A DNA stretch of 64,000 bases from Rhodospirillaceae bacterium (GTDB lineage: Bacteria > Pseudomonadota > Alphaproteobacteria > GCA-2721365): assembly GCA_002721365.1 (NCBI GenBank), contig PBKC01000092.1, forward strand, positions 190 to 64,189, read 5' to 3'. The position numbers were made by a program, and so were the translations under genes. The notes below the pieces were generated by a model that saw only the letters and a list, made by a program, of their open reading frames with translations, was not told the origin of the DNA and searched no databases. Shown here one piece after another: positions 12,621 to 58,458 of this stretch. Within the stretch, counting starts at the first letter, position 1, and each line of letters opens with the position of its first letter.

Positions 12621-12664
12621 AAGGACCCCCTGAAATCTTAGACGCGGACGCGAAGGGCGCCCGT

Positions 12665-33714: not shown

Positions 33715-34578
33715 ATGTTTAGAAGCAGTCTAGTTGCTCTTGCCGCTTTCCTGTCTCTGACCGCGACCGGCTTGCCTGCGGCGGCGCAGCAAGATCAGAC
33801 AGATCAGCCCCAGGCCACGGCCCCCGGACCTATGGCCGGCATGATGCATCGGCGCGGCATGGGCATGATGGGTGAGCCGGGTGCGGCCTGCCCGTTCGCC
33901 GACGACGGCGCCACCTGCGGCCGGATGACGGACGACGACATGAGAGGCCCAGGCATGATGGGCGGCGGCATGATGCCGATGATGCGCATGATGCACGGAG
34001 GACAAGGTATGGGCGGCGGCACGCCGTCGGTCATCATCAATATCTATCCCGGCGGTCCCATGGGGATGAACATGGGCGGCATGGGTATGGGCATGATGGC
34101 CGGCCCCATGATGAACCGGAGCACGGGTATGGGCATGGGACCGGGAATGGGTATGGGCCGCGGCATGTCGAACGGCGACATGACGATGGGCGGCATGGGC
34201 CGAGGCCGCGTGAACATGATGGCCGACGACAGCGATAGCGACATGTTCGGCCCCGGCCGCGACGCCTATGGCGGCATGGGTATGGGCATGGGCCGCGGCA
34301 TGATGGGCGGCGGCATGATGATGGGGCCGATGGCGGGCGACGGCATGCAGGGTGGCATGCATCGGGGCCGGGGCCGCGACCTGGACCTTTCGGAAGACGA
34401 CGTCCGCGAGATGATGAGTGAACATTTCGCCATGATGGGCCGCGACGATCTCACCGTCAGCACGGTCAGTCCGATCGACGACGACCTGATGAGCGTGGAC
34501 GTCGCAACCACGGATGGTCAGGAGCATCATCGCATGGTGGTCAATCGCCACTCGGGCGCGATGATGCGCGCGGACTGA
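33715..34578 (+). CDS. Secreted Met/Gly-rich low-complexity protein (about 25% Met; MGMGMG repeats), probable Cu(I)-binding periplasmic protein
   Basis: Cleavable signal peptide. Extended (M/G)n repeats (GMGMGMMAGPMM, GMGMGPGMGMGRGM, GGMGMGMGRGMMGGGMMMGPM). Two Cys (CPFADDGATC). Structured-looking C-terminal about 60 aa. GAGGAGG RBS. Located within the copper island. The antisense His/Ala-rich ORF 33730-34551 is rejected as a mirror artefact. Confidence 0.6.
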   Translation: MFRSSLVALAAFLSLTATGLPAAAQQDQTDQPQATAPGPMAGMMHRRGMGMMGEPGAACPFADDGATCGRMTDDDMRGPGMMGGGMMPMMRMMHGGQGMGGGTPSVIINIYPGGPMGMNMGGMGMGMMAGPMMNRSTGMGMGPGMGMGRGMSNGDMTMGGMGRGRVNMMADDSDSDMFGPGRDAYGGMGMGMGRGMMGGGMMMGPMAGDGMQGGMHRGRGRDLDLSEDDVREMMSEHFAMMGRDDLTVSTVSPIDDDLMSVDVATTDGQEHHRMVVNRHSGAMMRAD

Positions 34579-35199: not shown

Positions 35200-37305
35200 T
35201 CAGGCGGGCACGCCCTCGGCCTGACGGTCGAAATGGCGGTGCTTGGTGATCGCCGCGACGAAGGAACCGGCGAAGTCCGAGACGTTCGCACCGTCCGGAC
35301 CGGTCACAACCCCCTTTACGGCCTCGACGCCGTCGCCGCCCTCCGGCAGATCGGGAAGCGAGGCCTGGCGCAGCAGCGCGACGCCCTCGCCCAGGGCGGC
35401 GATCGGCTTGAAGTGCGCGAACGCCTCGTCGATGAAGTGGACGGCGAGGCCCATCTTCTTCAACGCCGCCGCGCTGTCCTTGCCGCCCGGCACGAACACC
35501 GCGTCGTAGATCACCGAGGGTGCGTTCGGCGCCGCCCGGTCGACGGGGATGCTGCCGCCATCGGCGGTCTTCACGGTCCCCGAGGTCTTGGCGATCACCT
35601 CCGTCACCGCGCCCTCGCCTTCCAGCGCCTTCTTCACCGCCTCGAGCTGCGCGCCGTCGACGCCGTCCCCGGCGAGGATGGCGATCTTGCGGCCTTTGAT
35701 CGAGTCGGCCGGCTTGTCCATGCTCAGCGCCGGCGACTTGCCCGGCTCCCCGGCCTTGCCGCCCTTGACCCGGCCCTTCAGCTCGACGCCGACATTGTCG
35801 GCCACCCGCTTCGCCAGATCGGCGTTCACATGGGCCAGCAACTCGGTCACGACACGTTCTCGGATTTCCATAACGTTCACCATGTTGAGCTCGAAGGAGA
35901 ACGCTTCGACGATGTGGTCCTGCTCCCACCCGGCCATGCTGTCCCAGAACAGCGCCGCCTGGCTGAAGTGGTCGCCGAAGCTCTTGCTGCGGACGCGGAT
36001 CTTCCGCCCGTCGACCTTCTCGGCGTAACTCGTGAAGGCCGCCATCGCCTCGGGCGAATGCGCGGGGCATCCGCCGCCGAGGGAATTCGGGAAATACGCC
36101 ACCCGCCCCTTGTCGACGGTCTGCCGGCCCATGGCGTCGCGCTGGTTGTTCCGCACCGGGTTGATCGGCCGGTTGATCGGCAGCTCGGCGAAGTTCGGAC
36201 CGACGCGGCGAAGCTGGGTGTCGATGTAGGAGAACAGCCGCCCCTGAAGCAGGGGATCGTTGGTGAAGTCGATGCCCGGCACCACATGGCCGGGGTGGAA
36301 GGCCGCCTGTTCGGTCTCGGCGAAGTAGTTGTCGGGGTTGCGGTCGAGGACCATCTTCCCCACCCGCTTCACCGGCACCAGCTCCTCCGGGATGATCTTG
36401 GTCGGATCCAGAAGATCGAAGTCGAACTTGTGCTCGTCTGCTTCCGGAACGATCTGCAGACCCAGCTCCCATTCCAGGAAGTCGCCGCGCTCGATCGCCT
36501 CGAACATGTCCTTGCGATTGAAGTCCGGGTCCTTGCCGGCGACCTTCTGTGCTTCGTCCCACACCAGCGAATGGATGCCCTTCAGCGGCTTCCAGTGGAA
36601 CTTGACGAAGTGCGCCTTGCCCTCGGCGTTGACCAGCCGGAAGGTGTGGACGCCGAAGCCTTCCATCATCGCGAAGCTGCGCGGGATGCCGCGGTCGGAC
36701 ATCACCCACATCAGCATGTGGGTGGTCTCGGGCGTCAGCGAGGCGAAGTCCCAGAAAGTATCGTGGGCCGACTGCGCCTGCGGAATCTCGTTGTGGGGCT
36801 CGGGCTTCACGGCGTGGATCAGGTCGGGGAACTTGATCGCGTCCTGGATGAAGAAGACCGGGATGTTGTTGCCGACCAGGTCCCAGATGCCCTCCTCCGT
36901 ATAGAACTTGACCGCGAAGCCGCGGACGTCGCGCGGCGTGTCGACCGACCCGCGCGAGCCGACCACGGTCGAGAAGCGCACGAACACCGGCGTCTTCTTC
37001 GACGGGTCCTGGAACAGCGACGCCTTGGTGTAGGGGGCCAGGGATTCGTAGACTTGGAAATAGCCGTGTGCCGCAGCGCCGCGGGCGTGGACCACGCGCT
37101 CGGGGATGCGCTCATGGTCGAAATGGGTGATCTTCTCGCGGAGGTGGAAGTCCTCCATAAGCGTCGGGCCGCGCTCCCCGACGGTCAGGGAATTCTGATC
37201 GTCGTCGATCATCAGCCCCTGATTGGTGGTCATGTGCTCGCCGGCGTCGCGCCGGTCGCGCTCCATGTCGCGAAGCTTCGCGTCGTCTCGGGTTTCCTCG
37301 CTCAT
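35200..37305 (-). CDS. katE: Large-subunit monofunctional catalase HPII (KatE) with C-terminal DJ-1/PfpI-like domain
   Basis: Catalase core motifs ([28 protein letters not shown]), 701 aa. The antisense ORF 35233-37467 is rejected. Confidence 0.95.
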
Positions 37306-37522
37306 ATGCTCTCCGCCGGATGCGGTTGGGGGGGATCTCGCCTTCTTGTAATGACTCTAAAACGCCGGACCGCGACGGTGGTTCGGGGGTGGAGAGAAGT
37401 TCTTCGAAAAACGGTCCCCGAGCCTCCCGACCGAATTTCGAATAGGTTGTTCGCGCGCATTTCGTGAAGTGGCGCTACTCTCTGTTTGGTGACCCGGTTC
37501 CCGCGGATGGGAAACACGAGAA

Positions 37523-38851
37523 ATGACCGGAAGAGTGGAGTTCCGCTGCGCGAGCAAGACCTCGCCCGACACCAAGCGTCGGCAGAGTCTGCTCGACATC
37601 GCACGCGCGACCGGCGTGCCCATCTGGTGCGAATGCGGCGGCAAGGCCCGCTGCACCACCTGCCGGGTGCGGGTGGTCGACGGGCTGGCCAACCTGGCGC
37701 CGCGCTCCGCCGCCGAGAAGCGGCTCGCCTCGCTGCGCGGCTGGGACCCGGCCACCCGGCTCGCCTGCCAGACCCGCGTCACCGGGAACGTCGCCGTCGA
37801 GCGCCTGATCCGCAGCGGATCGGAGGTGAGCCCGCTTCAGGTCGAGACCGTCCGCGCCGGAAGCGGCGACGAGCGCCAGCTCGCCATCCTGTTCTGCGAC
37901 GTCCGCGACTTCACCACCTTCGCCGAGTCACACCTGTCGTTCGACGTGGTCCACGTGCTCAACAAGCTGTTCGCGGTGCTGGGCGAGCCGATCCTGCTCA
38001 ACAACGGCGTCATCTACCAGTACGTCGGCGACGAGATCACCGGCCTGTTCGGTCTCGAAGCGGGCAGCGAGGCGGATAGCTGCCGCACCGCCGTCCGTGC
38101 CGCCCTCGGCATGCTGGCCGCGGTCGAGACCCTGAACGACGAACTGGAGAGCGAGTTCGGGGCGCGGCTCGCGGTCGGGATCGGCCTCCATTTCGGCCCG
38201 GTGGTGATCGGCCGCATCGGCCATCCCAGCCACCAGCAGTTCGGCGTGGTCGGCGACACCATCAACGCCGCCAGCCGCATTCAGGAGGCCAACAAGACCC
38301 TCGGCACCCGATTCCTGGCTTCGAGCCCTGTCGTCGACTGCCTGCCGGAGGGCGTGCTCGCCTGCGGGAAGTCCACCACCGTCACCCTGCGCGGTCGGCA
38401 GGAACCGGTGGGGCTGGTCGAGATCCGGGGCTTCACCACGCCGGACCCGGTGCTGATCGCCCAGACCACCGCCGGTGCCCTTCTGTCACGGAAGGCCGAG
38501 CTGACCTCGGCCTTCTACGGACGCCTGTTCGAGGCGGCGCCCGGCCTCCGGCCGATGTTTCCCGCCAACCTGGAGGGGCAGTCGGAAAAGCTCGGCCAGA
38601 TGCTGGAAGTGCTGGTCTATGCGCTGAACCGGCCGACCCAACTCGCGATGGGCCTCCACAGCCTGGGCCAGCGCCACGTCGCCTACGGCGTCACCGCCGA
38701 GCATTACGCCGCCGTCGGCCCGATCCTGCTCGCGGCCATCGGCGACATCCTGGGCGACGACTTCCAGCCCCAGGTGAGGGAGGCATGGGCGGCCCTGATC
38801 GACACCATCCTGCAGCTCATGCAGCGGGGCGCGGCGAACGCGCCCGACTGA
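37523..38851 (+). CDS. Three-domain fusion: [2Fe-2S] ferredoxin (adrenodoxin-type) / class III adenylyl-guanylyl cyclase catalytic domain / C-terminal single-domain globin
   Basis: N-terminal C-x5-C-x2-C-x33-C (CGGKARCTTC...ACQTRV). CHD cyclase motifs (LAILFCDVRDFTTF, VGDEITGLFG, GIGLHFGPVVIGRIG, GDTINAASRIQ). C-terminal globin helices matching Vgb/Hmp (FYGRLFEAAPGLRPMF; LAMGLHSLGQRHVAYGVTAEHYAAVGPILLAAIGDILGDDF...REAWAALIDTI). Confidence 0.75.
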   Translation: MTGRVEFRCASKTSPDTKRRQSLLDIARATGVPIWCECGGKARCTTCRVRVVDGLANLAPRSAAEKRLASLRGWDPATRLACQTRVTGNVAVERLIRSGSEVSPLQVETVRAGSGDERQLAILFCDVRDFTTFAESHLSFDVVHVLNKLFAVLGEPILLNNGVIYQYVGDEITGLFGLEAGSEADSCRTAVRAALGMLAAVETLNDELESEFGARLAVGIGLHFGPVVIGRIGHPSHQQFGVVGDTINAASRIQEANKTLGTRFLASSPVVDCLPEGVLACGKSTTVTLRGRQEPVGLVEIRGFTTPDPVLIAQTTAGALLSRKAELTSAFYGRLFEAAPGLRPMFPANLEGQSEKLGQMLEVLVYALNRPTQLAMGLHSLGQRHVAYGVTAEHYAAVGPILLAAIGDILGDDFQPQVREAWAALIDTILQLMQRGAANAPD

Positions 38852-38855
38852 CCGT

Positions 38856-40568
38856 CTAGGCCGCCGGGTCGGACCGTGCCCCGCGCACCAGCCGGCCGGG
38901 CAGCGCGCCGGTCGGCTCGCCGTCCTGCATCACCTCGACACCGGCGACGAAGGTGTGGCGATAGCCCTCGGACTTCTGGACCAACCGCTTGCCGTTCGCC
39001 GGCAGGTCGTAGGCGACCCTGGGCCGCGTCAGGCGGAGGTTCTCGAAGTCGATCAGGTTGATGTCGGCGCGATAACCCGGCGCGATCAAGCCGCGATCGA
39101 GAAGCCCATAGGCGACCGCGGTATCGCGGGCCTGCTTCTTCACCAGGAATTCGAGCGGCAGATGCTCGCCCCGCCGCCGGTCGCGCGCCCAATGGGTCAG
39201 CAGATAGGTCGGCGAGGCCGCATCACAGATGATGCAGACATGGGCGCCGGCATCGGCGACGCCGCAGACGCTGTCCGGATGGGTCAGCATCTCGCGCACC
39301 ACCTCGAGATCGCCGTCGCAGTAGTTCTCGAAGGTGTGAAGCAGGAGCGCCTGCCCGTCGTTCTGCATCATCAGTTCGAGGGCGAGGTCGAAGGGATCGC
39401 GCCCCTGCCGCTTCGCCCGCGCGGTGATGCTGTCGGCGGGATCGGGCTCGTAGTCGATCCGATCGTCCAGCTCGAAGGTCCGGTCGAGGGCCTGGGCGAT
39501 CCACTGCGTATCGGCGTTGTCGGGCCTCTCCTCCACCAGTCGTCGGCGGAGGTCCGGATTGTTCCTGAGTTCCGCCAAACGCTGGGCCGGCGTCCAGTCC
39601 GCCATCGCGAGCCAGTCCGGGTGCGTGCGGAAGGGATGGGTGCTGGCCTCCAGCCCCATCATGACGCCGATCGGCCGGCAGCCGACCTGAGCGTTGGCGG
39701 CGAGGCCGGCGGCGCGCATCCGGCTCACCCCGTCCAGGGTCTCGCGCCACAGGTCGGGCGCGTTGGCGACCTGGACCAGCAGCACCGAGAGCGGCCGGCC
39801 GGCGATCTCCGCCGCTGCGCGCAGGCGGCCGAAATCGCCGGCGCCGAAATCCGAATTCACCTCGATCACCCCGCGTCCCGCGCGCCGCATCGCCCGCGCG
39901 AGACCGGCGAGCTCGGGCTCGGCTGCGGAAAGGCTCGGCGTCAGGCGGCCGTCCGCCGCCCGGTGCTTGGTGGTGCGCGAGGTGGTGAAGCCCAGCGCGC
40001 CAGCCATCAGCCCTTCTTCCAGAAGGCGGCCCATGCGGTCGATCTCGTCGGCGGTGGGCTCGGCCGTGTGATCCGCCCCGCGCTCACCCATGACGTAGAA
40101 CCTGAGCGGCGCATGCGGCACCTGGGCGCCGATGTCCATGATCCGCGGCATCGAATCGAGGACGTCGAGATAATCGGGGAAGCTCTCCCAGCGGAAGTCG
40201 ATGCCTTCGGCCAGCACCGCTTCGGGGATATCCTCGACCCCTTCCATCAGGTTGATCAGATAGGGCTCCTGCCCCTTCGCCACCGGCGCGAAGCCGACGC
40301 TGCAGTTCCCGAACACCGCGGTGGTGACGCCGTGCCAGGACGACGGGGTCATGTAAGGGTCCCAGGTCGCCTGCCCGTCGTAATGGGTGTGGATGTCCAC
40401 CCAGCCGGGCGTCAGCAGCAGGCCGTCGGCCGCGATCTCGCGCCGGCCGGGGCCGACGCCCCGCCCTACGGCGACGATCGTTCCGCCGTCGATCGCAACA
40501 TCGGCCGTTCGGGCCGGACAGCCGGTGCCGTCCACCACCGTGGCGCCGCGAATGACGATGTCATGCAT
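38856..40568 (-). CDS. N-acyl-D-amino-acid deacylase (D-aminoacylase) family amidohydrolase
   Basis: MHDIVIRGATVVDGTG...GWVDIHTHYDGQ metal-dependent hydrolase motifs. The start is at ATG 40568. Confidence 0.8.
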   Translation of the reverse strand: MHDIVIRGATVVDGTGCPARTADVAIDGGTIVAVGRGVGPGRREIAADGLLLTPGWVDIHTHYDGQATWDPYMTPSSWHGVTTAVFGNCSVGFAPVAKGQEPYLINLMEGVEDIPEAVLAEGIDFRWESFPDYLDVLDSMPRIMDIGAQVPHAPLRFYVMGERGADHTAEPTADEIDRMGRLLEEGLMAGALGFTTSRTTKHRAADGRLTPSLSAAEPELAGLARAMRRAGRGVIEVNSDFGAGDFGRLRAAAEIAGRPLSVLLVQVANAPDLWRETLDGVSRMRAAGLAANAQVGCRPIGVMMGLEASTHPFRTHPDWLAMADWTPAQRLAELRNNPDLRRRLVEERPDNADTQWIAQALDRTFELDDRIDYEPDPADSITARAKRQGRDPFDLALELMMQNDGQALLLHTFENYCDGDLEVVREMLTHPDSVCGVADAGAHVCIICDAASPTYLLTHWARDRRRGEHLPLEFLVKKQARDTAVAYGLLDRGLIAPGYRADINLIDFENLRLTRPRVAYDLPANGKRLVQKSEGYRHTFVAGVEVMQDGEPTGALPGRLVRGARSDPAA

Positions 40569-42213: not shown

Positions 42214-42729
42214 CTATCCGGTCTCGCGACCGGCGTCCTGGTCGCCAGGGACGGTTCCGTCCCGCCAATTCTTGAACGGCCGCACGGCCAGCTCCGAATT
42301 GTAGTAGCGAGGATCGCCCGTGACTTCCTCGCCCAGCCATAGCGGCTTCGCGAACATCTCGTCGGGGGCGCTCAACTCGATTTCGGCGAGCACGAGGCCC
42401 TCGTTTTCGCCGGAGAAGACGTCGACCTCCCACACATGCCCCTCCAAGGGCACGCGATAGCGGGTCTTCTCGATCACCGCCCCCAGCCGAAGCGCCAGCA
42501 TCTCCTCGGCATCTTCGAGCGGGATGGGATACTCGAACTCGTCCCGGACCATCTCGCTCTTCCCCGACTTGATCGTCAGCCGCGCGGCCGCGTCATCGAA
42601 GATGCGGACACGGACCGAGGTCGTTCCCCTGTTCGCGAGATAGGCCTGCCTGAAACGGGAGCGATCCCTGACCAAGGCGCGCCAGCTATCACCCGCGACC
42701 AGGAACTTCCGCTCGATCTCTGCCGCCAT
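42214..42729 (-). CDS. CYTH-domain protein (CyaB/thiamine triphosphatase-like)
   Basis: N-terminal EIERKFLV signature of CYTH. About 170 aa. Confidence 0.7.
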   Translation of the reverse strand: MAAEIERKFLVAGDSWRALVRDRSRFRQAYLANRGTTSVRVRIFDDAAARLTIKSGKSEMVRDEFEYPIPLEDAEEMLALRLGAVIEKTRYRVPLEGHVWEVDVFSGENEGLVLAEIELSAPDEMFAKPLWLGEEVTGDPRYYNSELAVRPFKNWRDGTVPGDQDAGRETG

Positions 42730-42955
42730 CCGTCCCGCCCCCCGCCGGTCGAGGCCCGCCGAGGCGCGCCGCATGTTGCAGTTCTGTTACGGAAGTCGAG
42801 GGGTACCCTCAAACACCCGGCAGGGTCAACTCACGTGCCGCGCCTAGCATGGACGACGTTATGGCGCAGCTCGCCGCCGGTCCGCCCTGGCGTGGTCATT
42901 ACCGTCCGATTGAGTCACCTGCACGAAGGCGGGATGACGGAACCGCGAAGGAGCC

Positions 42956-43827: not shown

Positions 43828-44622
43828 TCAATCGGTGAAGACGTGGGGACGGTCTGCGCCGGGGTGACGGCCGATGGTGACGGAAACGCCGAAGACGTCG
43901 GCGATCAGGGTCTCGGTCAGGACCGCCCAGGGCGAGCTGTCGGCAACGACGCGGCCGTCCCGCATCACCACGATCCGGTCCGCATAGGTGGCGGCGAGGT
44001 TCGGGTCGTGAAGAACGGCCATTACGCCGAGCCCTTCCTCGGTCAGTCGTCGTGCCGTCCGAAGGATCGTGTGCTGGTGGGCGATATCGAGATTGTTGGT
44101 GGGCTCGTCGAGCAGCAGATAGGCGCGGCCATCGTCTTCGTTCCCGCCGCGGCGAAGGCCGCTGATCTGCGCCAGGGCACGGGCGAACTGCACCCGCTGG
44201 CGCTCGCCGCCCGACAACGTCGTGTACAGGCGATCGGCGAGGTGGAGGATGTCCGCCTCACGCATGGCCTGCTCCGTGATGGCGTAATCGTCGCTGTGCT
44301 CGACCCGGCCGACATGCGGGCTCCGGCCGAGAAGAACCACCTCGAAGGTCCGGAACGGAAAGTTGAGGGTCGAGGCCTGGGGAAGAACCGCCCGCTTCCG
44401 TGCCAGATCGCGTCGGGGCCAGGAGGCGAGCGGCGCATTGTCCAGCGTCACCCGTCCCGAATCCGGAACCACGGCGCCGGACAGGGCATGGAGCATGGTC
44501 GACTTGCCTGCACCGTTGGGACCGATGATCGCGACCATCTCGCCGGGTACGAGCGCGAAGTCGACGCCCTTCAGTATCTCGTTGCCGCCCCGCGACACAT
44601 GAATGGCGTTCGCAGCCAGCAT
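43828..44622 (-). CDS. hmuV: Hemin/iron-siderophore ABC transporter ATP-binding protein (HmuV)
   Basis: Walker A GPNGAGKST, ABC signature LSGGERQRV, Walker B LLLDEPT. The ATG overlaps the hmuU stop. Confidence 0.85.
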   Translation of the reverse strand: MLAANAIHVSRGGNEILKGVDFALVPGEMVAIIGPNGAGKSTMLHALSGAVVPDSGRVTLDNAPLASWPRRDLARKRAVLPQASTLNFPFRTFEVVLLGRSPHVGRVEHSDDYAITEQAMREADILHLADRLYTTLSGGERQRVQFARALAQISGLRRGGNEDDGRAYLLLDEPTNNLDIAHQHTILRTARRLTEEGLGVMAVLHDPNLAATYADRIVVMRDGRVVADSSPWAVLTETLIADVFGVSVTIGRHPGADRPHVFTD

Positions 44623-45698
44623 CACCACGCCCCCATGCCCCGGCGCCGCATGAGGAGCCACAGGAAGAACGGCCCGCCCACGCAGCTTGTCAGAATACCG
44701 ATCGGCAACTCGGCCGGGAGGACCAGCGAACGGGCGAGCAGGTCCGCAATGAGCATCAAGCTGGCACCAAGGAGAGCCGACGCCGGCAGGACCGTGCGAT
44801 GGTCAGGTCCCGCCATCAGCCGGACGAGATGAGGCACCACCAGCCCGACGAAGCCGATGACGCCCGAAATCGCGACCGCCGCACCGACGGCGAGGGCGAC
44901 CAGGACAACGATGACACGCTTGGTCCGCTCGACGTCAAACCCCAGATGCCCGGCTTCGGTCTCGCCCAGCAGGAAGGCGTTGAGCGGCCGCGCCAGCAAG
45001 GGCAGCGCGATTGCCGGCAGGAGGATGAACGGCAGGCTGGTTGCAAGCTGCACCCAGGTGATTCCGCCGAGGCTGCCAAGCAGCCAGTAATTGAGGTCCC
45101 GGAGCTGCTGCTCGTCGCTCATGAAGACGAAGTAGCCGATCCCGGCGGCGGTGATGGCATTGAGCGCGACACCGGCGAGCAGCATGGTGGAGACGTCCGT
45201 CTCTCCGGCTCGGGTCGCGATCTGATAGACGACGAAGGTCGTGGCCACACCCCCGGCGAAGGCCGCGACCGGCAGGCCGAAGCCAGCGGTCAGACTGAGG
45301 AAGGCGCCGCCGAAGACGATCACGGTCGCGGCCGCCAGAGCCGCACCAGTGGATACGCCGATCAGCGCGGGATCTGCGAGCGGGTTTCTGAACAGCCCCT
45401 GCAACGCCCCCCCGCTGATCGCCAGCGCCGTACCGACCAGAACGGCGCCGATCGCCCGCGGCAGGCGGATGCCTGTCAGCACCAAGGCCTGGGCGGGGTC
45501 GTAGGTCCAGGGAAGAGAGAGCCCAACCTTATCGGCAAGGATGGCGAGCACCTGTCCCGGCGCGATCGGGACGGCCCCGTAGCCGACCGACAACACGAAC
45601 ACCACCGCCAGAAGAACGGAAAGGCTCGTCAGAAACAGCTCGCGCTGACCACTGCGGCGAAGGGTCCGTACGCGAGTCACGAGGGTCGCGTCTGCCAT
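44622..45698 (-). CDS. hmuU: FecCD-family hemin ABC permease (HmuU)
   Basis: FecCD permease topology and motifs. Confidence 0.85.
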   Translation of the reverse strand: MADATLVTRVRTLRRSGQRELFLTSLSVLLAVVFVLSVGYGAVPIAPGQVLAILADKVGLSLPWTYDPAQALVLTGIRLPRAIGAVLVGTALAISGGALQGLFRNPLADPALIGVSTGAALAAATVIVFGGAFLSLTAGFGLPVAAFAGGVATTFVVYQIATRAGETDVSTMLLAGVALNAITAAGIGYFVFMSDEQQLRDLNYWLLGSLGGITWVQLATSLPFILLPAIALPLLARPLNAFLLGETEAGHLGFDVERTKRVIVVLVALAVGAAVAISGVIGFVGLVVPHLVRLMAGPDHRTVLPASALLGASLMLIADLLARSLVLPAELPIGILTSCVGGPFFLWLLMRRRGMGAW

Positions 45699-45703
45699 CC
45701 CCG

Positions 45704-46582
45704 TTATCGGCCCAGGACGTTCAGCGTCAGGTCGGGGTGCAGGGCCTCGGCCAGCGCCTGGACAGCCTGGGGCGTCCGGGGGCCGAACCCCAGCAGCAAC
45801 AGCCCGTCCAGGGCGATGAGGCGCCCCTCGGTTCCTGCCGGGGTCGCCGCCAGCTCGGGCCGGGCCAGCAACGCGGCTTCGCCGCCCAGTGCGTCAAGAC
45901 TGCGCTGGTCGATCAAAATGTAATCCGGTGCCGCGGTGACGGCCGCCTCGGGCGACAACGGCATGTAGTCGGTAAAGCCTTCGATGGCGTTGCGGCCACC
46001 GGCCAGTGAGATGATCCCGTCAGCCGCGGTGCCGGCGCCGGCCGCGAGCGGCGCTCCGCTGCCGATCGACAACAGGTAAAGAACGCTCGGCCGATCCTCG
46101 ACCGTCGCGATCTTGTCGCGCAGGGCCGCAAAGTCCTGTTCGAGCTTCGAGGCCAGTTCGTCACCCTCGGACGACAGGCCCAGGGCGTCGGCGACGGTAT
46201 GCACCTTGGCGATGACGCCTTCGGGAGTCGGCTCGTCGGGAACATGAACGACCCGGACGCCCGCCGCGGCGATCTGGTCGAGAACTGTCGGCGGCCCGGC
46301 ATCCTCCACCGCGAGGACGATCGACGGCGCCATGGCCAGGATCGGTTCCGCGGCCAACTGCCGCATATAGCCGACGTCCGGGAACGCGCGCGCGGAGTCG
46401 GGATAAAGGCTGGTGCTGTCGACCGCGATCAGGCCGCTGTCGGCCCCAAGCGCATAGACGACCTCGGTGACCGCCCCCCCGACGGAGACGATCCGGTGCG
46501 CATCCTCCGCCGCCCGAACCTTGGCATGCGGAAGGGCGGCCGCGACCAGAACGGCCGCAGCCACCAACCACTTTCGGTGCAT
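45704..46582 (-). CDS. hmuT: Periplasmic hemin-binding protein (HmuT-like, cluster A-II SBP)
   Basis: Signal peptide. HmuT-like fold motifs. The start overlaps the hmuS stop (ATGA). Confidence 0.8.
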   Translation of the reverse strand: MHRKWLVAAAVLVAAALPHAKVRAAEDAHRIVSVGGAVTEVVYALGADSGLIAVDSTSLYPDSARAFPDVGYMRQLAAEPILAMAPSIVLAVEDAGPPTVLDQIAAAGVRVVHVPDEPTPEGVIAKVHTVADALGLSSEGDELASKLEQDFAALRDKIATVEDRPSVLYLLSIGSGAPLAAGAGTAADGIISLAGGRNAIEGFTDYMPLSPEAAVTAAPDYILIDQRSLDALGGEAALLARPELAATPAGTEGRLIALDGLLLLGFGPRTPQAVQALAEALHPDLTLNVLGR

Positions 46583-47652
46583 CAAGCCGTCCCCGCGACC
46601 CGCGACAGGCTCGCGAGAAGCGCCCGCCATTCCTCGCGCTCGGCCGCCCCGCGATCGCGCTGCCCGAACATCCAGGCGATCTGGCTGTCATTGGCGTCGA
46701 AGATTTCGAGCGAGGAGATGATCCCTTCCCGCGTCGGTTTGCGCAGCACCCAGGCCGACGCGATACCCTCGTCCCGCAGGTGCAGGTTGAAACCCTTGTC
46801 CAGCACGTTGAACCACGGCCCCACCCGCTTCAGGTTGGTGACCGGGCCGGTGTGGATCTGAACGACACCGGGGCTCGGCACGAACACCATGATCGGGATT
46901 TCCTGGCTCGCCGCCTGCTGCAACGTCTCGACGAAGCTCGACACCGGCACCGCCTCGGCGAATTCGGGTCCCACCAGGCGGCAGGCCTGGACGCGATCGA
47001 CATCGAGGTCCCGCAGCATCATCGCGAAGTCGTGGACGTCCTGCAGACCGCGCCAGCGCGCGCGCAGGGCATCGACATCGATCTCGGAATCGGGGCGCGC
47101 GGACGCCGGAGCGGCCGGCGGTTCCACCCGCTGGCCCGGCCTCTGATCGGCGGTCTTGTGCCGCTCGACCAGGGCATCGTATGCGGCGGCGTCGGTCTCC
47201 TCACGAACGTGGACCTTGAACACCGCCGTCCCCGTAGGACCGAAGAACTGCAGGCTGCGACGCGGACCGGACGGTCCCTGGTCGGTGACAGCGAAACCCG
47301 AACCCCAGGCCGACCAGCGAACGCGGAGATCGATATCGGCTCCGAGCACCAATGCCCCGACATCGCTGACCGACACCGCCTCGAACGTCCCGACCTTTTC
47401 ATGGACGGCGAAGTCGTTGCGGGTCAGCACCATGACCGGCCCCAACGCCGGCAGGGCTTCCAGAAGCTCGCTCCAGCGGCCGTCGAGACGGGTTACGTCA
47501 CCGCCGCAGCGTGCGGCAACCAGTTCCGCCTCGCTGACGCCCAGCTTCTCGGCGGCATCGCGCGCGCGGAGGCTGCCTTCCGACTGTTTGAGCTGCTGAT
47601 AGCGGTCGAGAAGGGCCGACGGGTCGGCGGCAGGCACATTATTCTGATCCAT
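46582..47652 (-). CDS. hmuS: Hemin degrading/transport protein HmuS/ChuS/PhuS family
   Basis: Two-repeat ChuS-family architecture. N-terminus ...LRARDAAEKLGVSEAELVAARCG. Confidence 0.85.
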   Translation of the reverse strand: MDQNNVPAADPSALLDRYQQLKQSEGSLRARDAAEKLGVSEAELVAARCGGDVTRLDGRWSELLEALPALGPVMVLTRNDFAVHEKVGTFEAVSVSDVGALVLGADIDLRVRWSAWGSGFAVTDQGPSGPRRSLQFFGPTGTAVFKVHVREETDAAAYDALVERHKTADQRPGQRVEPPAAPASARPDSEIDVDALRARWRGLQDVHDFAMMLRDLDVDRVQACRLVGPEFAEAVPVSSFVETLQQAASQEIPIMVFVPSPGVVQIHTGPVTNLKRVGPWFNVLDKGFNLHLRDEGIASAWVLRKPTREGIISSLEIFDANDSQIAWMFGQRDRGAAEREEWRALLASLSRVAGTA

Positions 47653-47681
47653 GGATCGTTCTCCCACTGACGTCGTATGCG

Positions 47682-49838
47682 TTACCAACGCTGCGTGTAG
47701 CTCACGAGCGCCTTGTAGTTGCGGCCGGGTTCACGCGACGTGGTGAAGACCCGGTCGTAGGCTTTGTCGAAGACGTTATCGATGCCGAGATCGAGACGAA
47801 GGCCGGCGAGCGGCCCCTGCGCGGGCTGCCAGGCGTAAAAGATGTCGTGGACGGCGTAGCCCCCACGGATTTCGGCCGGGTCCGTGGTCTTGTCGAACTC
47901 GCTGGCTGCGATCATCCGCCACCCTGCCACCGAGTCGAATTCAGGCAGCTTGAGCGCGGCATCTACGGTGAGTTCCGGCGGGGTGAGGACACCGAGTTTC
48001 TCGCCGGTGATCTCGTTCTCGCCGTCGACGGTCGAGAAGCCGAGCCCCAACCGCAGGCGGTCGTCCTCATAGCTCATTTCGACCTCCGTGCCCCGCAGCT
48101 CCGCCTGGGGCACGTTGACCGACCGCGTCGTCCCGTCGCAGGAGCCCGGAACGACGATCGGATTACAGTCGACGAAGGGTTCGGGCTGGATCACGTCGAG
48201 GTCGATGAAGTCCTCGCCCTTGATCCGATAGTGCGAAACCTTGACTTCGAAATAGTCCCCCGGCGTGACGACGTCCTGGAAATTGAAACCGCCGCCGAAT
48301 TCGAAGGTCTTGGTCTTCTGGGGACGAAGGTCGGGGTTGGCGACGAAGCGGTTGACGATCCCCAGGAACAGCGGGAAGTGGATGCCGTCGAGGAACAACT
48401 CGTCGACCGCCGGCGCACGGAACGCCTTGCCGTAATTGGCGAACAGCAGGGACCACGTGGTCGGCATGTAGCTGACGCCGATCCGCGGCGAAACCGCCTG
48501 GTCCTCGTTCCCGGACGAGATCGCGCTGGTCGCCTCGTAGTGGTCGTAGCGGATGCCGGGGATGATCACCGCCTCGCCCGGCAGAACGCCGAGCGGCCGG
48601 CTCATCTTTACCTCGGCCTGGCTGTAGACGCCGAAGAACTCGGTCTCGGCATCCGGCACGCCGTCGCGCGGGCCTCCGCCAGCCGCCCCGGCTTGCTTGT
48701 CTCCATATCCTTCCATGCCATAGGTGAAGGTGACTCCCGCCGTCTCGCCGAGCATGAAGCGCGAGCGGTTGTCGATCCGGAAGCCGGTCGTGTCGACGTC
48801 GCGTTCCAGAAGTTCACCCGCGGGCCCGAGGCCGTTGCCGTCAAGCCGAAGCTCGTCCGCCCGCGTCGCCGTGTAGTAGAGCACCGCGTCCAGATTGACG
48901 AGGTGGTTGCCCGGATCGTCATAGCGGTAGGACAGCCGCCAGTTGTCGGAACGGATGTCCTTCTCGACGAGGTTCGTATCGCCGGCGCCCTGGCCGTTGT
49001 TGGGTTCCTCAGCATCGTTGTCGAAGCGCTGGAAGGACGCCTCCACATGATGAAAGTCGGCCACCTCGACGCCGGCCTTGAACAGTGCGGAGACGATATC
49101 GTCGTCACTGCGGTCGCGCTTGGTCCCGTCGCCGAGTTCAATGGAGCCGGACGCCCGCCGGGTGACGCTTGCGACGATGTCCAACTCGTCGGTGGGGCGG
49201 CCGAATACGGTCACGGTACCGACCTTCTCCCGGTTCACCGACTGATAGCCGGTACTGACCGAGTAGCCGTAGCGCTCCCACGGCGAGAGAAAATCCTCGG
49301 CGTTCACGGTCCGCAGCGCGATCACGCCACCCGTCCCGCCACTGCCGTAGAGCGACGACGACGATCCGCGCAGCACCTCGACCTCACGAAGCAGGCTGGG
49401 ATCGATGAAGAAGCGCCCGTCGTGGCCGGCGTTGAAGTTCTGTCGCGCGCCGTCCAGGAGGACGACGACATCGGGGCCGCTGAATCCGCGGATGCTCGGC
49501 ACCTCGCCGGTCCGGCGCGGCCCACCGGCGAACTCGACGCCGGGCACCAGCTTCAGAACGTCGTCGGGAGATGATGCCATCTGGCTGAGGATGCGGTCAC
49601 GCCCTACCACCGAAACCATACCCGGAAACGAGAACGTCCTGACGGGGTTGAGCGTGGCCGTTACGGATACGGTTCCGAGCCTGAGTGGCTCCGCGCCTTC
49701 GGTATCGGTGGTCGCCGCCATACCGGATTCCGCTTCAGCCGGCTTCGCTTCGTCTGCGGTCTGAGCGAACCCAACCGTCAGGGGGGCGCAGACGCCAAGC
49801 ATCAGAGCCGCGCTGCCGACAACACTTTTGTTCATCAT
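47682..49838 (-). CDS. hmuR: TonB-dependent heme/hemoglobin outer-membrane receptor (HmuR-like)
   Basis: Signal peptide, plug and barrel. Heme-receptor FRAP (GKAFRAPAVDELF) and NPDL (NPDLRPQK) boxes. Terminal aromatic ...YTQRW. The antisense ORF 47847-49574 is rejected. Confidence 0.85.
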   Translation of the reverse strand: MMNKSVVGSAALMLGVCAPLTVGFAQTADEAKPAEAESGMAATTDTEGAEPLRLGTVSVTATLNPVRTFSFPGMVSVVGRDRILSQMASSPDDVLKLVPGVEFAGGPRRTGEVPSIRGFSGPDVVVLLDGARQNFNAGHDGRFFIDPSLLREVEVLRGSSSSLYGSGGTGGVIALRTVNAEDFLSPWERYGYSVSTGYQSVNREKVGTVTVFGRPTDELDIVASVTRRASGSIELGDGTKRDRSDDDIVSALFKAGVEVADFHHVEASFQRFDNDAEEPNNGQGAGDTNLVEKDIRSDNWRLSYRYDDPGNHLVNLDAVLYYTATRADELRLDGNGLGPAGELLERDVDTTGFRIDNRSRFMLGETAGVTFTYGMEGYGDKQAGAAGGGPRDGVPDAETEFFGVYSQAEVKMSRPLGVLPGEAVIIPGIRYDHYEATSAISSGNEDQAVSPRIGVSYMPTTWSLLFANYGKAFRAPAVDELFLDGIHFPLFLGIVNRFVANPDLRPQKTKTFEFGGGFNFQDVVTPGDYFEVKVSHYRIKGEDFIDLDVIQPEPFVDCNPIVVPGSCDGTTRSVNVPQAELRGTEVEMSYEDDRLRLGLGFSTVDGENEITGEKLGVLTPPELTVDAALKLPEFDSVAGWRMIAASEFDKTTDPAEIRGGYAVHDIFYAWQPAQGPLAGLRLDLGIDNVFDKAYDRVFTTSREPGRNYKALVSYTQRW

Positions 49839-49887
49839 TCCCGCTTTCCAGCCCCTCTCCTCCGAGACCGGCGAACGTTACTGATAA

Positions 49888-55267: not shown

Positions 55268-56260
55268 TTACTCCTCCGCCGTCCCCACCGGCACCCGCGC
55301 TTCCATCGGCAGGGCCGGATCGGCGGACCATTCGGCGAGGGAGCCGTCGTAGATCACCGCTTCGTCGTTCCCCATCAGTTCGTGGGCGACGAACCAGCCG
55401 AGTGAGCTTTCCAGCCCTGAGTTGCAGAAATAGATGACCCGGCCGGTGGTCGGCACGCCAGCCGCCGCGAACAGGGTGTCGAGATCATGGCCAGTACGGA
55501 ACACCAGCCCACGATCGACGGTGAGCCAGGTGAGCGGCAGGTTGAGCGCCCCCGGCAGCGTGCCGGGGCGAGCAGTGATCGGCTCCCGGTTGACGCCCAA
55601 GAAGTAGTCCGTCGCGCGCAAGTCGACATGGGGCGTGCCGGCAGCGAGCGCCGTCTCCACCGCCGCCTTGTCGACCACCACACCGGCTGCCGGCTCGGCG
55701 TCGAAAACAGTCGGCTCCGGTGTCCGGTCGCCCGTCTCGACATCATTTTGCCAGTCGGCGATCCAGGCCGGAAAACCGCCGTCGAGGATCGAGACCCGTT
55801 TGAGGCCGGCCACCTTCATGATCAGGTACATCCGCGTCGTCTCGGCGGCGGAGACGTCGTCCAGGGACGTATTGTAGAGGACGACATGGCTGTCGCCGGC
55901 GATGCCGAGCCCGCCGATCAGCTTTTCGAGCTGCGGCCGCGGCGGGATCATCATCGGCACGCCGCCGACATGAGCGCGCCAGCCGTCTTCGTAGAAATTC
56001 GTGTAGACCGCGCAGGGGACGTGGCCGACCCGGTAGTCGTCCCGCGAGCGCCGCACATCGACCACGACGAGGCCGGATTCGCAGAGGTGTTCCGACAGCC
56101 AGGAGACGGCGACGAGCGGCCCCGGATAATTCGAATCCGTTTCCGCCGCCGCTTGGCCGGCAATGAACGAAATCACTGCGGAAAAGGCGGAAAAAACGGC
56201 GAAAAACGCGGCTATCCGCTTCGCCACATTCGGAAAACTGATCCGGACTATAGCTTTCAT
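55268..56260 (-). CDS. Secreted tandem-rhodanese sulfurtransferase (TST/MST-like)
   Basis: Signal peptide. Two rhodanese domains, the second carrying the active-site Cys loop (FCNSGLESS). Confidence 0.8.
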   Translation of the reverse strand: MKAIVRISFPNVAKRIAAFFAVFSAFSAVISFIAGQAAAETDSNYPGPLVAVSWLSEHLCESGLVVVDVRRSRDDYRVGHVPCAVYTNFYEDGWRAHVGGVPMMIPPRPQLEKLIGGLGIAGDSHVVLYNTSLDDVSAAETTRMYLIMKVAGLKRVSILDGGFPAWIADWQNDVETGDRTPEPTVFDAEPAAGVVVDKAAVETALAAGTPHVDLRATDYFLGVNREPITARPGTLPGALNLPLTWLTVDRGLVFRTGHDLDTLFAAAGVPTTGRVIYFCNSGLESSLGWFVAHELMGNDEAVIYDGSLAEWSADPALPMEARVPVGTAEE

Positions 56261-56334
56261 CCCCGCGGAAAACGCCTAAGTAAGACCCTGCCGGCTCGGA
56301 CCGGCCCAAGAAGCATCAAGCTGGAGGAAACCTT

Positions 56335-56412
56335 ATGTGGACCAAGCCCGTCATCCATGAAGTGGCCGTCGGCCTCGAGATCAACTGCTACGCCTGCGCC
56401 GAGCTCGGCTGA
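56335..56412 (+). CDS. pqqA: PQQ precursor peptide PqqA (25 aa)
   Basis: MWTKPVIHEVAVGLEINCYACAELG carries the conserved E-x3-Y crosslink pair. GGAGGA RBS 7 nt upstream. Immediately precedes pqqB. Too short to appear in the ORF track. Confidence 0.8.
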   Translation: MWTKPVIHEVAVGLEINCYACAELG

Positions 56413-56465
56413 CGGCGGATGGCCGTCCGCGGCCATCCTGATGACGACCAGCGCAGGAAACCAGC

Positions 56466-58174: not shown

Positions 58175-58458
58175 GCGAACGCACCATCCTCACCGAGGAC
58201 AGCGTTCCCAAGCTGCCCCGCCACGCCAAGCTGCGCTTCGACAAGCCGCGCGACAAGTGGATCATCCTCGCGCCCGAGCGGGTGTTCGAGCTCGATCCGA
58301 TCGCGTCCGAAGTCGTCAGATTGTGCGACGGCAGCAAACCCGTGAACGAGGTGGTCGACACCCTGGCCGCCAAGTACGAGGCCCCGCGCGACGTCATCGC
58401 CAAGGACGTCATCGACATGCTGCAGGGCCTCGCAGACAAGGGATTCGTAGTGACATGA
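58171..58458 (+). CDS. pqqD: PqqD peptide chaperone
   Basis: PqqD-like (WIILAPERVFELDPIASEVVRLCDGSKPVNEVVDTLAAKY). The GTG start overlaps the pqqC stop. Confidence 0.85.
   Translation: MSERTILTEDSVPKLPRHAKLRFDKPRDKWIILAPERVFELDPIASEVVRLCDGSKPVNEVVDTLAAKYEAPRDVIAKDVIDMLQGLADKGFVVT

Follow-up and report, generated by a model that had tools for sequence, protein, structure and literature searches.

What a nucleotide cyclase responds to when it is held on one chain between a [2Fe-2S] ferredoxin and a globin, and what it makes, is the question raised by a gene in the window (the 64,000-nt stretch of Rhodospirillaceae DNA analysed here). The gene is complete and occupies 37523..38851, stop codon included, on the + strand, as do all parts of the protein located below; it encodes 442 aa in one unbroken frame from an ATG start, and its N-terminus aligns with those of homologues. 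An earlier sequence-only reading had described the ORF as a ferredoxin, cyclase and globin fusion. Pfam searches bear this out, each domain scoring above its gathering cut-off: Fer2 at residues 20–87 (E 2.1e-9; 37.6 bits vs 21), Guanylate_cyc at 119–294 (E 3e-17; 63.2 bits vs 21.9) and Globin at 330–430 (E 9.9e-13; 49.1 bits vs 22). The three folds are likewise confirmed by a predicted monomer model (pTM 0.90), in which compact packing of the domains is confidently predicted. Conservation was assessed in a homologue set of at least 120 clusters at 45–83% identity, with the same three Pfam domains and similar length.

Ferredoxin and Globin Domains

The N-terminal domain (residues 1–100; 37523..37822) is a [2Fe-2S] ferredoxin of the putidaredoxin/adrenodoxin type. 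Its full cysteine pattern, C38-x5-C44-x2-C47-x34-C82, corresponds on a beta-grasp fold to the C-x5-C-x2-C-x(about 35)-C arrangement of adrenodoxin, putidaredoxin and Fdx, and among solved proteins the domain is most similar in sequence to terpredoxin, E. coli Fdx, putidaredoxin and adrenodoxin, in agreement with the adrenodoxin-type assignment made earlier from the ligand spacing. C38, C44 and C47 (codons 38–47; 37634..37663) are present in 120/120 three-domain homologues and 79/79 Fer2-cyclase relatives examined, and the fourth ligand, C82 in a LACQ motif (37766..37768), is invariant in the 120 homologues and pairs in the alignment with the last of the four Cys in terpredoxin and Fdx. C36 was rejected as a ligand, its position being taken by R, Q or H in 116/120 homologues. 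With this ligand set the domain is expected to be loaded with a [2Fe-2S] cluster. Its relatives among NCBIfam models are NqrF and RACo-type AcsV. Terpredoxin, putidaredoxin and adrenodoxin are shuttles that reduce haem enzymes, and NqrF and AcsV belong to FNR-linked reductases.

The ferredoxin is joined to the cyclase by a linker of residues 101–115 (37823..37867), in which alignments show Q106 to be nearly invariant and E108 invariant; in the model it contains a short helix (103–107) and has the lowest pLDDT, 75–81, which is still confident. Since the Fer2 domain begins at residue 1, the protein has no room for a membrane anchor, and a hydropathy scan detected no transmembrane segment in it or in any three-domain homologue tested.

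The C-terminal domain (residues 309–438; 38447..38836) is a 3-on-3 globin of the F (flavohaemoglobin-like) family. The distal Tyr B10 (Y332; 38516..38518), distal Gln E7 (Q353; 38579..38581), proximal His F8 (H385; 38675..38677) and Phe CD1 (F346) that mark this family are each found in 120/120 homologues; Y332 pairs with the FY motif of the 3wfw and 3s1i globins and of flavohaemoglobin (FHb), and H385 with the RH...YGV motif of solved globins. Among solved proteins the domain is closest in sequence to F-family globins, neuroglobin, FHb and Vgb, so that the description of the domain as Vgb/Hmp-like stands. Similarity to FHb/Hmp, Vgb and the Hell's-Gate-type globins (3s1i, 3ubc, 3wfw) reaches E values of 1e-10 to 1e-16, with TyrB10, PheCD1, GlnE7 and HisF8 in common, and in 3wfw the same type of globin is fused to a regulatory (Roadblock/LC7) domain. 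Only PF00042 Globin matched the domain, the sensor-type Protoglobin model (PF11563) giving no match at E<=1. As in FHb, the globin is paired with a redox domain able to give single electrons; unlike FHb, the protein has a [2Fe-2S] ferredoxin in place of an FAD/NAD(P)H reductase, with the cyclase in between and the globin at the C-terminus. FAD_binding_6 and NAD_binding_1 found no match in the 442 aa, and the NCBIfam Hmp model scored 59.7 bits, below its cut-off of 432. From its pocket residues the globin is predicted to bind haem.

Cyclase Domain

Residues 116–305 (37868..38437) constitute a class III nucleotide cyclase catalytic domain, recognized by a fold and HMM score above threshold together with the two metal-binding Asp residues and the transition-state Asn/Arg pair. 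The first metal Asp, D126 (37898..37900), is present in 120/120 three-domain homologues and gives way to E or S in the kinase-fused relatives alone. The stretch Q166-Y-V-G-D170 (38018..38032) holds the first purine-specificity position and the second metal Asp (D170, 118/120), and the segment from G241, the second specificity position, to the transition-state pair N248 (118/120) and R252 (120/120) lies in FGVVGDTINAASR (38243..38278). Taken together, the metal, transition-state and phosphate-contacting residues are kept in 118–120/120 homologues. The earlier description of the cyclase as catalytically intact thus holds for the metal Asp residues and the Asn/Arg pair and fails for the purine-specifying pair, which is Gln166/Gly241. 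All six types of catalytic residue sit on the single chain, an arrangement compatible with a homodimer. Across the three domains, the alignment of the 120 homologues indicates that every functional site is under purifying selection.

Distribution and Modular Relatives

The survey that the sequence-only reading had called for reveals a widespread architecture, the clusters, at least 120 in number, spanning six or more phyla. Cultured hosts include Variovorax ureilyticus, Flagellimonas amoyensis, Eudoraea adriatica, Wocania arenilitoris and Leptospira yanagawae. The protein of the window, which is deposited as a hypothetical protein of metagenome-assembled (MAG) Rhodospirillaceae, had been presented as an unrecognized architecture. 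It is already catalogued, in that automatic annotation has labelled the family, for example as 'class 3 adenylate cyclase/hemoglobin-like flavoprotein'; the part of the claim that survives is that no paper characterizing it experimentally was found in the open-access literature, an absence that is not in itself proof. The nearest descriptions there are a predicted 6TM-ferredoxin cyclase (PMC4821796) and cyclases with an N-terminal globin.

The former are the ferredoxin-associated class IIIb adenylate cyclases of cluster 1 (e.g. R. palustris Q132R4), for which a 6TM cytochrome-b-like anchor with two haems was predicted by bioinformatics only (Beltz et al., 2016, eLife; PMC4821796). Homology to the window protein extends over the Fer2 and cyclase domains (query residues ~22–296) at 31–39% identity (tblastn, loci L021–L080), the ferredoxin with its four invariant Cys lies immediately N-terminal to the cyclase in both, the catalytic residues are shared, a haem-bearing domain is predicted on the same chain, and many members also have Gln at the first specificity position. 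The two differ in the haem domain, which is an N-terminal, presumably quinone-pool-coupled di-haem cytochrome b in the membrane in cluster 1 and a soluble C-terminal globin here; the 6TM anchor is missing from the window protein. In a crude neighbour-joining tree the globin proteins and the 6TM-anchored relatives form separate branches.

Fer2-cyclase can be recognized, from these comparisons, as a conserved two-domain core whose redox partner differs by lineage, which is a new finding. At the C-terminus the partner is a Rieske [2Fe-2S] domain, an FNR-like NAD-binding domain or the globin; at the N-terminus it is DUF2769 or an anchor of 5–6 transmembrane segments (by hydropathy, most of the ~560-aa relatives show 4–6, range 3–7). 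Because the redox partners are exchanged and the ferredoxin is constant, it can be argued that the ferredoxin takes part in electron transfer and is the part that signals to the cyclase. Relatives from Thermoanaerobaculia have the order Pkinase-Fer2-cyclase-globin and have kept all four Cys along with the Y/F/Q/H residues of the haem pocket; their cyclase metal Asp and Asn/Arg residues are gone. The cofactor ligands have therefore outlived the cyclase residues, suggesting that the ferredoxin and globin are kept as a sensory module independently of catalysis. The haem ligand of the globin has been lost in Leptospira kemamanensis, where the cyclase and ferredoxin are intact, so that the globin is dispensable in at least one lineage.

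Proposed Mechanism and Alternatives

Judged by its sequences, the family most likely signals O2, NO or redox state by means of a cyclic nucleotide. That gas binding and electron input gate the output jointly, as had been suggested at the outset, is plausible and is strengthened by the comparative evidence. The reading favoured here, to which we would give about an even chance, is a soluble stand-alone cyclase whose activity is gated by electrons passing between the cluster of the ferredoxin and the globin haem. A class III (IIIb-like) cyclase, presumed to be a homodimer, would form the centre, flanked by the two redox cofactor domains. The ferredoxin would be the proximal regulator, acting directly on the cyclase via the conserved linker so that the redox state of the cluster sets activity, and the globin haem, in its TyrB10/GlnE7/HisF8 pocket, would be the site of O2 and NO binding and reaction. 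The cluster may re-reduce ferric haem, a role played in flavohaemoglobin by the FAD domain and for P450 by putidaredoxin, and cyclic-nucleotide output would reflect the balance between reductant supply and O2/NO-dependent electron drain. Support for electron exchange comes from the solved relatives of the ferredoxin being haem-enzyme shuttles or FNR-linked, and from the requirement of F-family globins for a reductase partner, fused or separate, for turnover (Gardner, 2012; PMC3820574). We infer that the cofactors are loaded, that the protein dimerizes and that electrons pass between cluster and haem, and infer likewise which way regulation runs and what the product is.

Fer2-cyclases as a whole could constitute a general, hitherto undescribed 'electron-flux-gated' class of second-messenger enzymes, with the [2Fe-2S] ferredoxin as the universal proximal switch and the globin form driven by cluster-to-haem-to-O2/NO flow and not by allostery; this extension is put forward tentatively. 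Under it the partners would link the ferredoxin to different electron sources or sinks, the cytochrome b to the quinone pool, the FNR-like domain to NAD(P)H and the globin to O2/NO, the Rieske domain being a further such partner. To our knowledge, wherever a haem gas sensor that controls a cyclase has been characterized, the sensor domain is N-terminal and acts through allostery induced by the ligand; electron-flux gating, if true, would be a signalling principle unlike that of any characterized haem sensor. Textbook haem-based signalling devices are sGC and the globin-coupled sensors. In sGC a haem gas sensor also governs a class III cyclase, but its H-NOX fold is unrelated to globin, the enzyme is a heterodimer with the canonical Glu/Cys pair, and it has no Fe-S cluster. 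The Leishmania O2-sensing adenylate cyclase HemAC-Lm/OAC, a globin-coupled sensor, was reportedly described by Sen Santara et al. in 2013. It shares with the globin-coupled diguanylate cyclases, and with the window protein, a globin fused to a cyclase that would convert gas into second messenger. The globin of described globin-coupled cyclases and sensors is N-terminal, as the sequence-only reading had stated, and in bacteria belongs to the S family (PMC7475203; PMC7719234). The globin of the window protein, by contrast, is of the F family and follows the cyclase, at residues 309–438, in place of the N-terminal globin and C-terminal output of those sensors, and none of the latter is described with an Fe-S domain. 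The Fer2-cyclase-globin family therefore stands apart in combining a C-terminal, enzyme-type F-family globin with an electron-shuttle ferredoxin, within a wider cyclase set in which the ferredoxin is constant and the redox partner variable. Among cyclases regulated by haem and redox state it counts as a new variant, its function being read from its domains. If ferredoxin redox state gates the cyclase, a direct biochemical path would lead from electron flow or O2/NO turnover to cAMP/cGMP, which would explain how redox is coupled to second messengers in many marine and soil bacteria without classical systems. Soluble cyclases this compact (about 440 aa) and potentially redox- or gas-switchable could also be used for tool building.

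The strongest alternative, which we consider rather unlikely, dispenses with electron exchange and has the cyclase integrate two independent allosteric inputs, a globin gas sensor and a [2Fe-2S] sensor. Ligation of O2, NO or CO would shift the conformation of the globin, in the manner of globin-coupled sensors and Leishmania HemAC, and oxidation or loss of the cluster would sense oxidants, NO or iron-sulfur status, as in SoxR/IscR. Both cofactor sites are invariant in the homologues, as this scheme would have it, and ligand-dependent allostery is the mode of known haem-regulated cyclases and diguanylate cyclases (PMC7475203; PMC7719234). Soluble relatives of about 300–340 aa with the ferredoxin alone (loci L014, L017, L019, L028, L030 and L047) also favour it, since Fer2-cyclases without a fused partner imply that the cluster can act alone, and locus L015 retains Fer2-cyclase beside a dead globin. 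Two allosteric inputs do not, however, account for the partners being consistently electron-transfer modules (cytochrome-b-like, Rieske, FNR-like); moreover, the ferredoxin is of the electron-shuttle type and of no known sensor type, and the globin belongs to the F family, not, as the missing Protoglobin match also indicates, to the S family of known globin-coupled sensors.

Improbable in our estimation is a protein that is chiefly a redox enzyme, with an NO-dioxygenating or O2-reducing globin served by a ferredoxin reductase module and the cyclase as a dimer scaffold or minor activity. NO-dioxygenating flavohaemoglobins typically have such a TyrB10/GlnE7 pocket (PMC3820574), ferredoxin plus globin resembles a reductase-globin pair, the catalase gene adjoining in the genome of the window fits a detoxification theme, and the cyclase fold persists without catalysis in the kinase-fused relatives. 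Near-complete retention of the catalytic residues in the three-domain homologues would nevertheless be unexpected for a mere scaffold; there is no flavin or NAD(P)H domain, so that a reductase from outside would be required for turnover; other lineages do not have catalase next to the gene; and the protein kinase fusion of relatives points to signalling.

Cyclic-Nucleotide Product

The canonical purine-specifying pairs are Lys with Asp/Thr for ATP and Glu with Cys/Gly for GTP. Gln166/Gly241 fits neither, so that the choice between adenylate and guanylate cyclase that the specificity residues had been expected to settle, cAMP vs cGMP, is not callable from sequence. Position 166 is Q in 115/120 homologues and position 241 is T in 45, A in 32, S in 24 and G in 19. 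In the alignment Q166 pairs with the Glu of Cya2, the Synechocystis guanylate cyclase (2w01), and with the Lys of CyaC, the Spirulina class IIIb adenylate cyclase (1wc0–1wc6), and G241 pairs with a Gly of Cya2; unlike the window protein, neither enzyme has Fe-S or haem domains. Rv0386 is a cyclase with Gln/Asn, given here as background and not as evidence. The canonical adenylate-cyclase pair, Lys/Thr, occurs in the L. yanagawae homologue (locus L012), whose globin is intact, and in many Fer2-cyclase relatives, which suggests cAMP as the ancestral product. The product of the Fer2-cyclase-globin enzyme is probably cAMP, though it may be cGMP or the enzyme may have dual specificity.

The replacement of Lys/Glu by Gln and the small second residue have led us to weigh a non-canonical product, namely cGMP, a purine-promiscuous output or a Pycsar-like pyrimidine cyclic nucleotide, even with an anti-phage role. 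This would concern the product alone and is compatible with the electron-exchange mechanism; it seems to us quite unlikely, given Lys/Thr in L012 and in many relatives. The PycC HMM scores 63.3 bits, about the same as Pfam Guanylate_cyc (63.2), pointing to a shared fold only, and there is neither an adjoining Pycsar effector nor a conserved partner. Identity as a PycC defence protein was accordingly rejected, its score being no higher than that of generic class III.

Gene Integrity and Neighbourhood

Joining of three genes by sequencing error or a chimeric contig is virtually excluded, and with it the separate genes that the sequence-only reading had wished to see checked: a frameshift at the homologous locus L038 shows that such errors occur in MAGs, but the frame here is unbroken, 7 contigs carry the identical protein, and the homologue clusters, isolates among them, are built alike.

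The gene is flanked by katE and an amidohydrolase gene. A 217-bp intergenic region (37306..37522, no strand assigned) shared with the divergent katE is the presumed promoter region; a consensus scan of 37200–39000 detected no sigma-70-like promoter, and the sole terminator-like match in that interval is at chance level. Neighbourhoods were compared by all-against-all ORF clustering of 17 three-domain loci and by Pfam-annotated contexts of six further homologues. The divergent arrangement with katE noted earlier is present here but lineage-specific: catalase adjoins the gene only in the window's own lineage, so that katE was rejected as a family property and there is no ground for linking the function of the protein to catalase. 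No conserved neighbour was found at about 22 other three-domain loci, as expected of a self-contained one-component sensor, and no reductase to feed the ferredoxin is encoded near the gene. The widest neighbour cluster, of response regulators (LytTR-type in three, LuxR-type in one), covers 4/17 loci. A PPDK_N+cNMP_binding gene lies upstream only in V. ureilyticus; an adjacent cNMP effector was rejected as a family trait, being absent in V. defluvii and a related MAG. The wider O2-responsive set reported for the window can be found there in full, comprising a Crp/Fnr-type regulator, a FixL/FixJ-like pair and a caa3 oxidase.

Domain Architecture and Conserved Residues

The fusion gene is a single uninterrupted open reading frame in the window (37523..38851, + strand) with an ATG start and a 442-aa product, for which Pfam matches above the gathering score place Fer2 at residues 20-87 (E = 2.1e-9), Guanylate_cyc at 119-294 (E = 3e-17) and Globin at 330-430 (E = 9.9e-13), confirming the three-domain fusion and the domain order proposed in a sequence-only reading. 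Partial NCBIfam matches correspond to the ferredoxin modules of AcsV, NqrF and ISC ferredoxin at the N-terminus and to the globin part of NO-inducible flavohaemoprotein at the C-terminus. The identical protein is on record from a marine Rhodospirillaceae MAG, annotated as hypothetical, and its presence on seven contigs excludes a frameshift or a chimeric fusion. Functional statements on the protein are inferred from sequence, predicted structure and comparative genomics.

Four cysteines of the ferredoxin domain (C38, C44, C47, and C82; C-x5-C-x2-C-x34-C) are invariant across 120 homologues, and the ECGGxxxCxTC motif aligns residue for residue with the closest solved sequences, those of terpredoxin, E. 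coli Fdx, putidaredoxin, and adrenodoxin, which are electron shuttles and in most cases reduce haem enzymes. C36 could be mistaken for a cluster ligand; its position is occupied by Arg, Gln, or His in 116 of the 120. The globin domain has an equally invariant pocket in the same set (Y332 at B10, F346 at CD1, Q353 at E7, and H385 at F8). Its closest solved sequences are those of a Roadblock/LC7-globin fusion and of two "hemoglobin-like flavoprotein" globins of the Hell's-Gate type (E ∼1e-15 to 1e-16), followed by neuroglobin, flavohaemoglobin, and Vitreoscilla haemoglobin, and the Protoglobin (sensor globin) model of Pfam has no match in the protein. By these sequence criteria the globin belongs to the F-family, not to the S-family of known globin-coupled sensors.

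In the cyclase domain, the metal Asp D126 and R252 are kept in all 120 homologues and D170 and N248 in 118 each, while R292 (Lys or Arg in 117) stands where we would place the Lys that contacts the triphosphate in most class III cyclases. Of the two purine-specifying positions, the first lies four residues before D170 and is Lys in adenylate and Glu in guanylate cyclases; here it is Gln166 (Gln in 115/120), and the second is Gly241 (T45, A32, S24, and G19 across the family). The closest solved cyclases are CyaC, CyaB, and Cya2, and since these are class IIIb enzymes, stimulation of the fusion cyclase by bicarbonate/CO2 is conceivable by analogy. HMMER alignments set Gln166 opposite the Glu of Cya2 and the Lys of CyaC, and Gly241 opposite the Gly of Cya2, whose E-G specificity pair is documented (PMC4215837). 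The earlier description of the cyclase as catalytically intact is borne out by the conserved D126, D170, N248, and R252, and the domain looks catalytically competent, but the Gln166/Gly241 pair allows no product call.

Distribution and Annotation of the Family

A word-indexed search with the fusion protein returned 854 relatives, the best 120 clusters of which share all three Pfam domains at 45-83% identity and mostly 430-480 aa; source names include Variovorax, Casimicrobiaceae, Geminicoccaceae, Nannocystaceae, Cyanothece, and Phaeodactylibacter. Scanning one genome per GTDB species gave full-length three-domain matches in Saprospiraceae, Lewinellaceae, Variovorax ureilyticus, Flagellimonas amoyensis, Eudoraea adriatica, Wocania arenilitoris, Leptospira yanagawae, and Thermoanaerobaculia, together with a homologue split over three frames in a Thermodesulfobacteriota MAG (L038:5812-7269), for which an assembly frameshift or pseudogenization is the probable cause. 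An exhaustive HMMER search of 1.84 billion representatives with the cyclase-globin junction (residues 230-442) detected 51 proteins at E<=1e-30, and ∼35 of the best 150 matches, forming ∼30-40 clusters at 50% identity, span cyclase and globin in a single stretch. Rather than a singleton, the fusion represents a family.

The architecture, which the sequence-only reading did not recognize, is already catalogued by automatic annotation, given the JGI label "class 3 adenylate cyclase/hemoglobin-like flavoprotein" and the NCBI label "adenylate/guanylate cyclase domain-containing protein" on its members; however, a full-text search of the open-access literature found no paper describing or characterizing it. 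Fer2-cyclase-globin proteins are an uncharacterized, auto-annotated family. The junction search also revealed free-standing globins of 140-150 aa with up to 40-48% identity to the fusion globin, and its best matches to the globin part (P0121-P0128) are giant multi-globin proteins, P0121 having 14 globin stretches in 2461 aa (40% identity); tandem arrays of the fusion-type globin exist in metagenomes.

A Ferredoxin-Cyclase Core with Varying Modules

Many relatives in the genome scan match the ferredoxin and cyclase only (query residues ∼22-296, 31-39% identity). Their open reading frames were extracted and scanned with sub-profiles, a hydropathy filter and Pfam, revealing that the Fer2-cyclase core is constant, its Cys ligands are invariant and its partners vary. 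Proteins of ∼560 aa, mostly from Alphaproteobacteria, have an N-terminal anchor of 5-6 transmembrane segments, and soluble forms of ∼300-340 aa have no extra domain. A C-terminal Rieske [2Fe-2S] domain replaces the globin in Marinimicrobia and other MAGs (L023:5980-7314, L024:2296-3633, and L031:5944-7278), a Leptospirales MAG encodes a C-terminal FNR-like NAD_binding_1 domain (L016:5911-7548) and spirochaete MAGs an N-terminal DUF2769 (L018:5488-6858 and L020:1230-2630). Besides the C-terminal globin of the architecture studied here, Thermoanaerobaculia join an N-terminal Ser/Thr protein kinase to the whole Fer2-cyclase-globin unit (L010:4909-7257 and L011:5032-7257). Except for the kinase and DUF2769, the fused modules are classical electron-transfer domains. 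A crude neighbor-joining tree of the core tentatively places the main globin clade, as a monophyletic group, within the soluble branch and the Leptospira forms elsewhere.

The specificity pair likewise differs by clade. Lys/Thr, which is canonical for class IIIb adenylate cyclases, occurs in L. yanagawae (L012), L. kemamanensis (L015), several soluble forms and the membrane forms of roseobacters; most of the remaining membrane forms have Gln/Ser or Gln/Thr, and the Rieske fusions have Asn/Thr. This variation indicates that Gln recurs as a selected variant at a site that was ancestrally adenylate-cyclase-like and is not a defect. The membrane-anchored group was described by Beltz et al., who noted that the anchors resemble fumarate-reductase/succinate-dehydrogenase cytochrome b and predicted two haems in them (PMC4821796). 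At least two forms of the haem, ferredoxin, and cyclase combination thus appear to have arisen, a membrane-bound form and a soluble form.

Two natural variants bear on the roles of the domains. The kinase fusions L010 and L011 retain all four Cys and a complete haem pocket (Tyr/Phe/Gln/His) and have lost the cyclase metal Asp residues (replaced by E/S and E/G) and the Asn/Arg pair (A/Q and A/S), which implies that the ferredoxin-globin pair is kept for its own sake, the pattern expected of a sensory module. These proteins look like pseudo-cyclase transducers in which the cyclase fold would be a scaffold and the kinase an alternative output. Conversely, L. kemamanensis L015:5866-7305 has an intact Lys/Thr cyclase and intact ferredoxin Cys, and its C-terminal "globin" has lost HisF8, TyrB10, GlnE7, and PheCD1; this appears to be a decayed haem domain, making the globin accessory to the core. 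Of wider interest than a single gene would be this pattern, in which a cyclase core, presumably gated by its ferredoxin, combines with interchangeable redox inputs.

Proposed Mechanism and Comparison with Known Systems

By analogy, the protein would follow the haem-regulated cyclase principle of sGC, Leishmania HemAC and the globin-coupled diguanylate cyclases. It lies outside these families, however, with an F- rather than S-family globin that is C- rather than N-terminal, and an additional Fe-S domain. The ferredoxin-associated class IIIb cyclases are homologous to it, but their defining membrane anchor is absent.

Each chain would carry one [2Fe-2S] cluster and one haem b, and the protein presumably forms the usual head-to-tail cyclase homodimer. 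Electron delivery to haem by putidaredoxin and adrenodoxin is an established system. The folds, the conserved ligand and catalytic residues, the modular relatives and the absence of partners are results of this analysis; the proposed mechanism borrows from that system, from the membrane-form prediction of Beltz et al. and from flavohaemoglobin, in which the globin is reduced by a fused FNR-type module (PMC3820574). The most likely reading, to which we give an even chance, is that the ferredoxin is the proximal switch and that electron transfer couples its redox state to the haem. O2 would bind to ferrous haem, reaction with NO or autoxidation would yield ferric haem, the cluster would re-reduce the haem and a cellular reductase the cluster, whose steady-state redox level might then set cyclase activity through the conserved linker (Q106 and E108). 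In the strongest reading, electron flux and not ligand binding would gate cNMP synthesis; this is doubtful, and if true would constitute a new signaling principle.

The main rival to electron coupling, in which the two cofactors are independent allosteric inputs without electron exchange, is judged unlikely. A non-canonical nucleotide product, compatible with either mechanism, is improbable, and there is equally slight probability that the protein is primarily an enzymatic NO-dioxygenase with a scaffold cyclase, against which stands the conservation of the cyclase catalytic residues. A Pycsar-type defense role was rejected because the PycC score is equal to that for class III cyclases in general and an effector is absent.

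Genomic Surroundings

A large-subunit catalase gene (35200-37305, − strand) is divergent from the fusion gene, as originally described, but the arrangement is not conserved: clustering of all flanking open reading frames of 17 three-domain loci detected no shared neighbor except response regulators in four Bacteroidota loci, and six further Pfam-annotated contexts were completely different from one another. The catalase link is local to the window lineage, and the fusion protein appears to behave as a self-contained one-component sensor. Redox-related neighbors occur sporadically (cytochrome c peroxidase, rubrerythrin, truncated globin, hemerythrin-GGDEF, and other cyclases). In V. ureilyticus (L083:6611-7867), a PPDK_N + cNMP_binding protein, a possible cyclic-nucleotide effector, is encoded directly upstream of the homologue on the same strand, preceded by a PEP-utilizers protein; this neighbor is absent in V. 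defluvii and a related MAG.

An Amidohydro_3 gene is convergent with the fusion gene, and nitronate monooxygenase, DUF465, and glyoxalase genes are nearby, as are a gene for a CYTH-domain protein (42214-42774, − strand; a triphosphate tunnel metalloenzyme/class IV cyclase-like fold), 3.4 kb downstream of the fusion gene, and, 6-11 kb away, a haem uptake/utilization cluster (about 44600-49840, − strand) encoding a TonB-dependent receptor, ChuX/HemS, a periplasmic binding protein, a FecCD permease, and an ABC ATPase. The O2-responsive set anticipated for the window is present at the domain level: the genes at 1980-2852 (−), 3449-5077 (+), 5086-5718 (+), and 6804-12900 encode a Crp/Fnr-type regulator that has a cNMP-binding domain, a PAS-PAS histidine kinase resembling FixL, a response regulator resembling FixJ (REC+GerE), CtaG and, as an operon, a caa3-type oxidase. 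Although encoded 35 kb away, the Crp-type regulator would be a conceivable cNMP receptor.

Copper-resistance genes lie upstream of the fusion gene. Directly after this block (multicopper oxidase, CopB, cupredoxin, and P-type ATPase) is a gene (33715-34578, + strand) for a 287-aa protein with an extreme content of Met and Gly, including MGMGMG and GMM runs. Its N-terminus resembles a signal peptide, Pfam gives no match, and it may be a Met-rich periplasmic copper binder. Elsewhere in the window are PQQ-biosynthesis-like genes pqqB-E (Pfam Lactamase_B_2, TENA_THI-4, PqqD, and radical SAM/SPASM) with SoxYZ and a rhodanese at about 55300-59800, and a PQQ-dependent dehydrogenase with cytochrome c partners at ∼13-16 kb.
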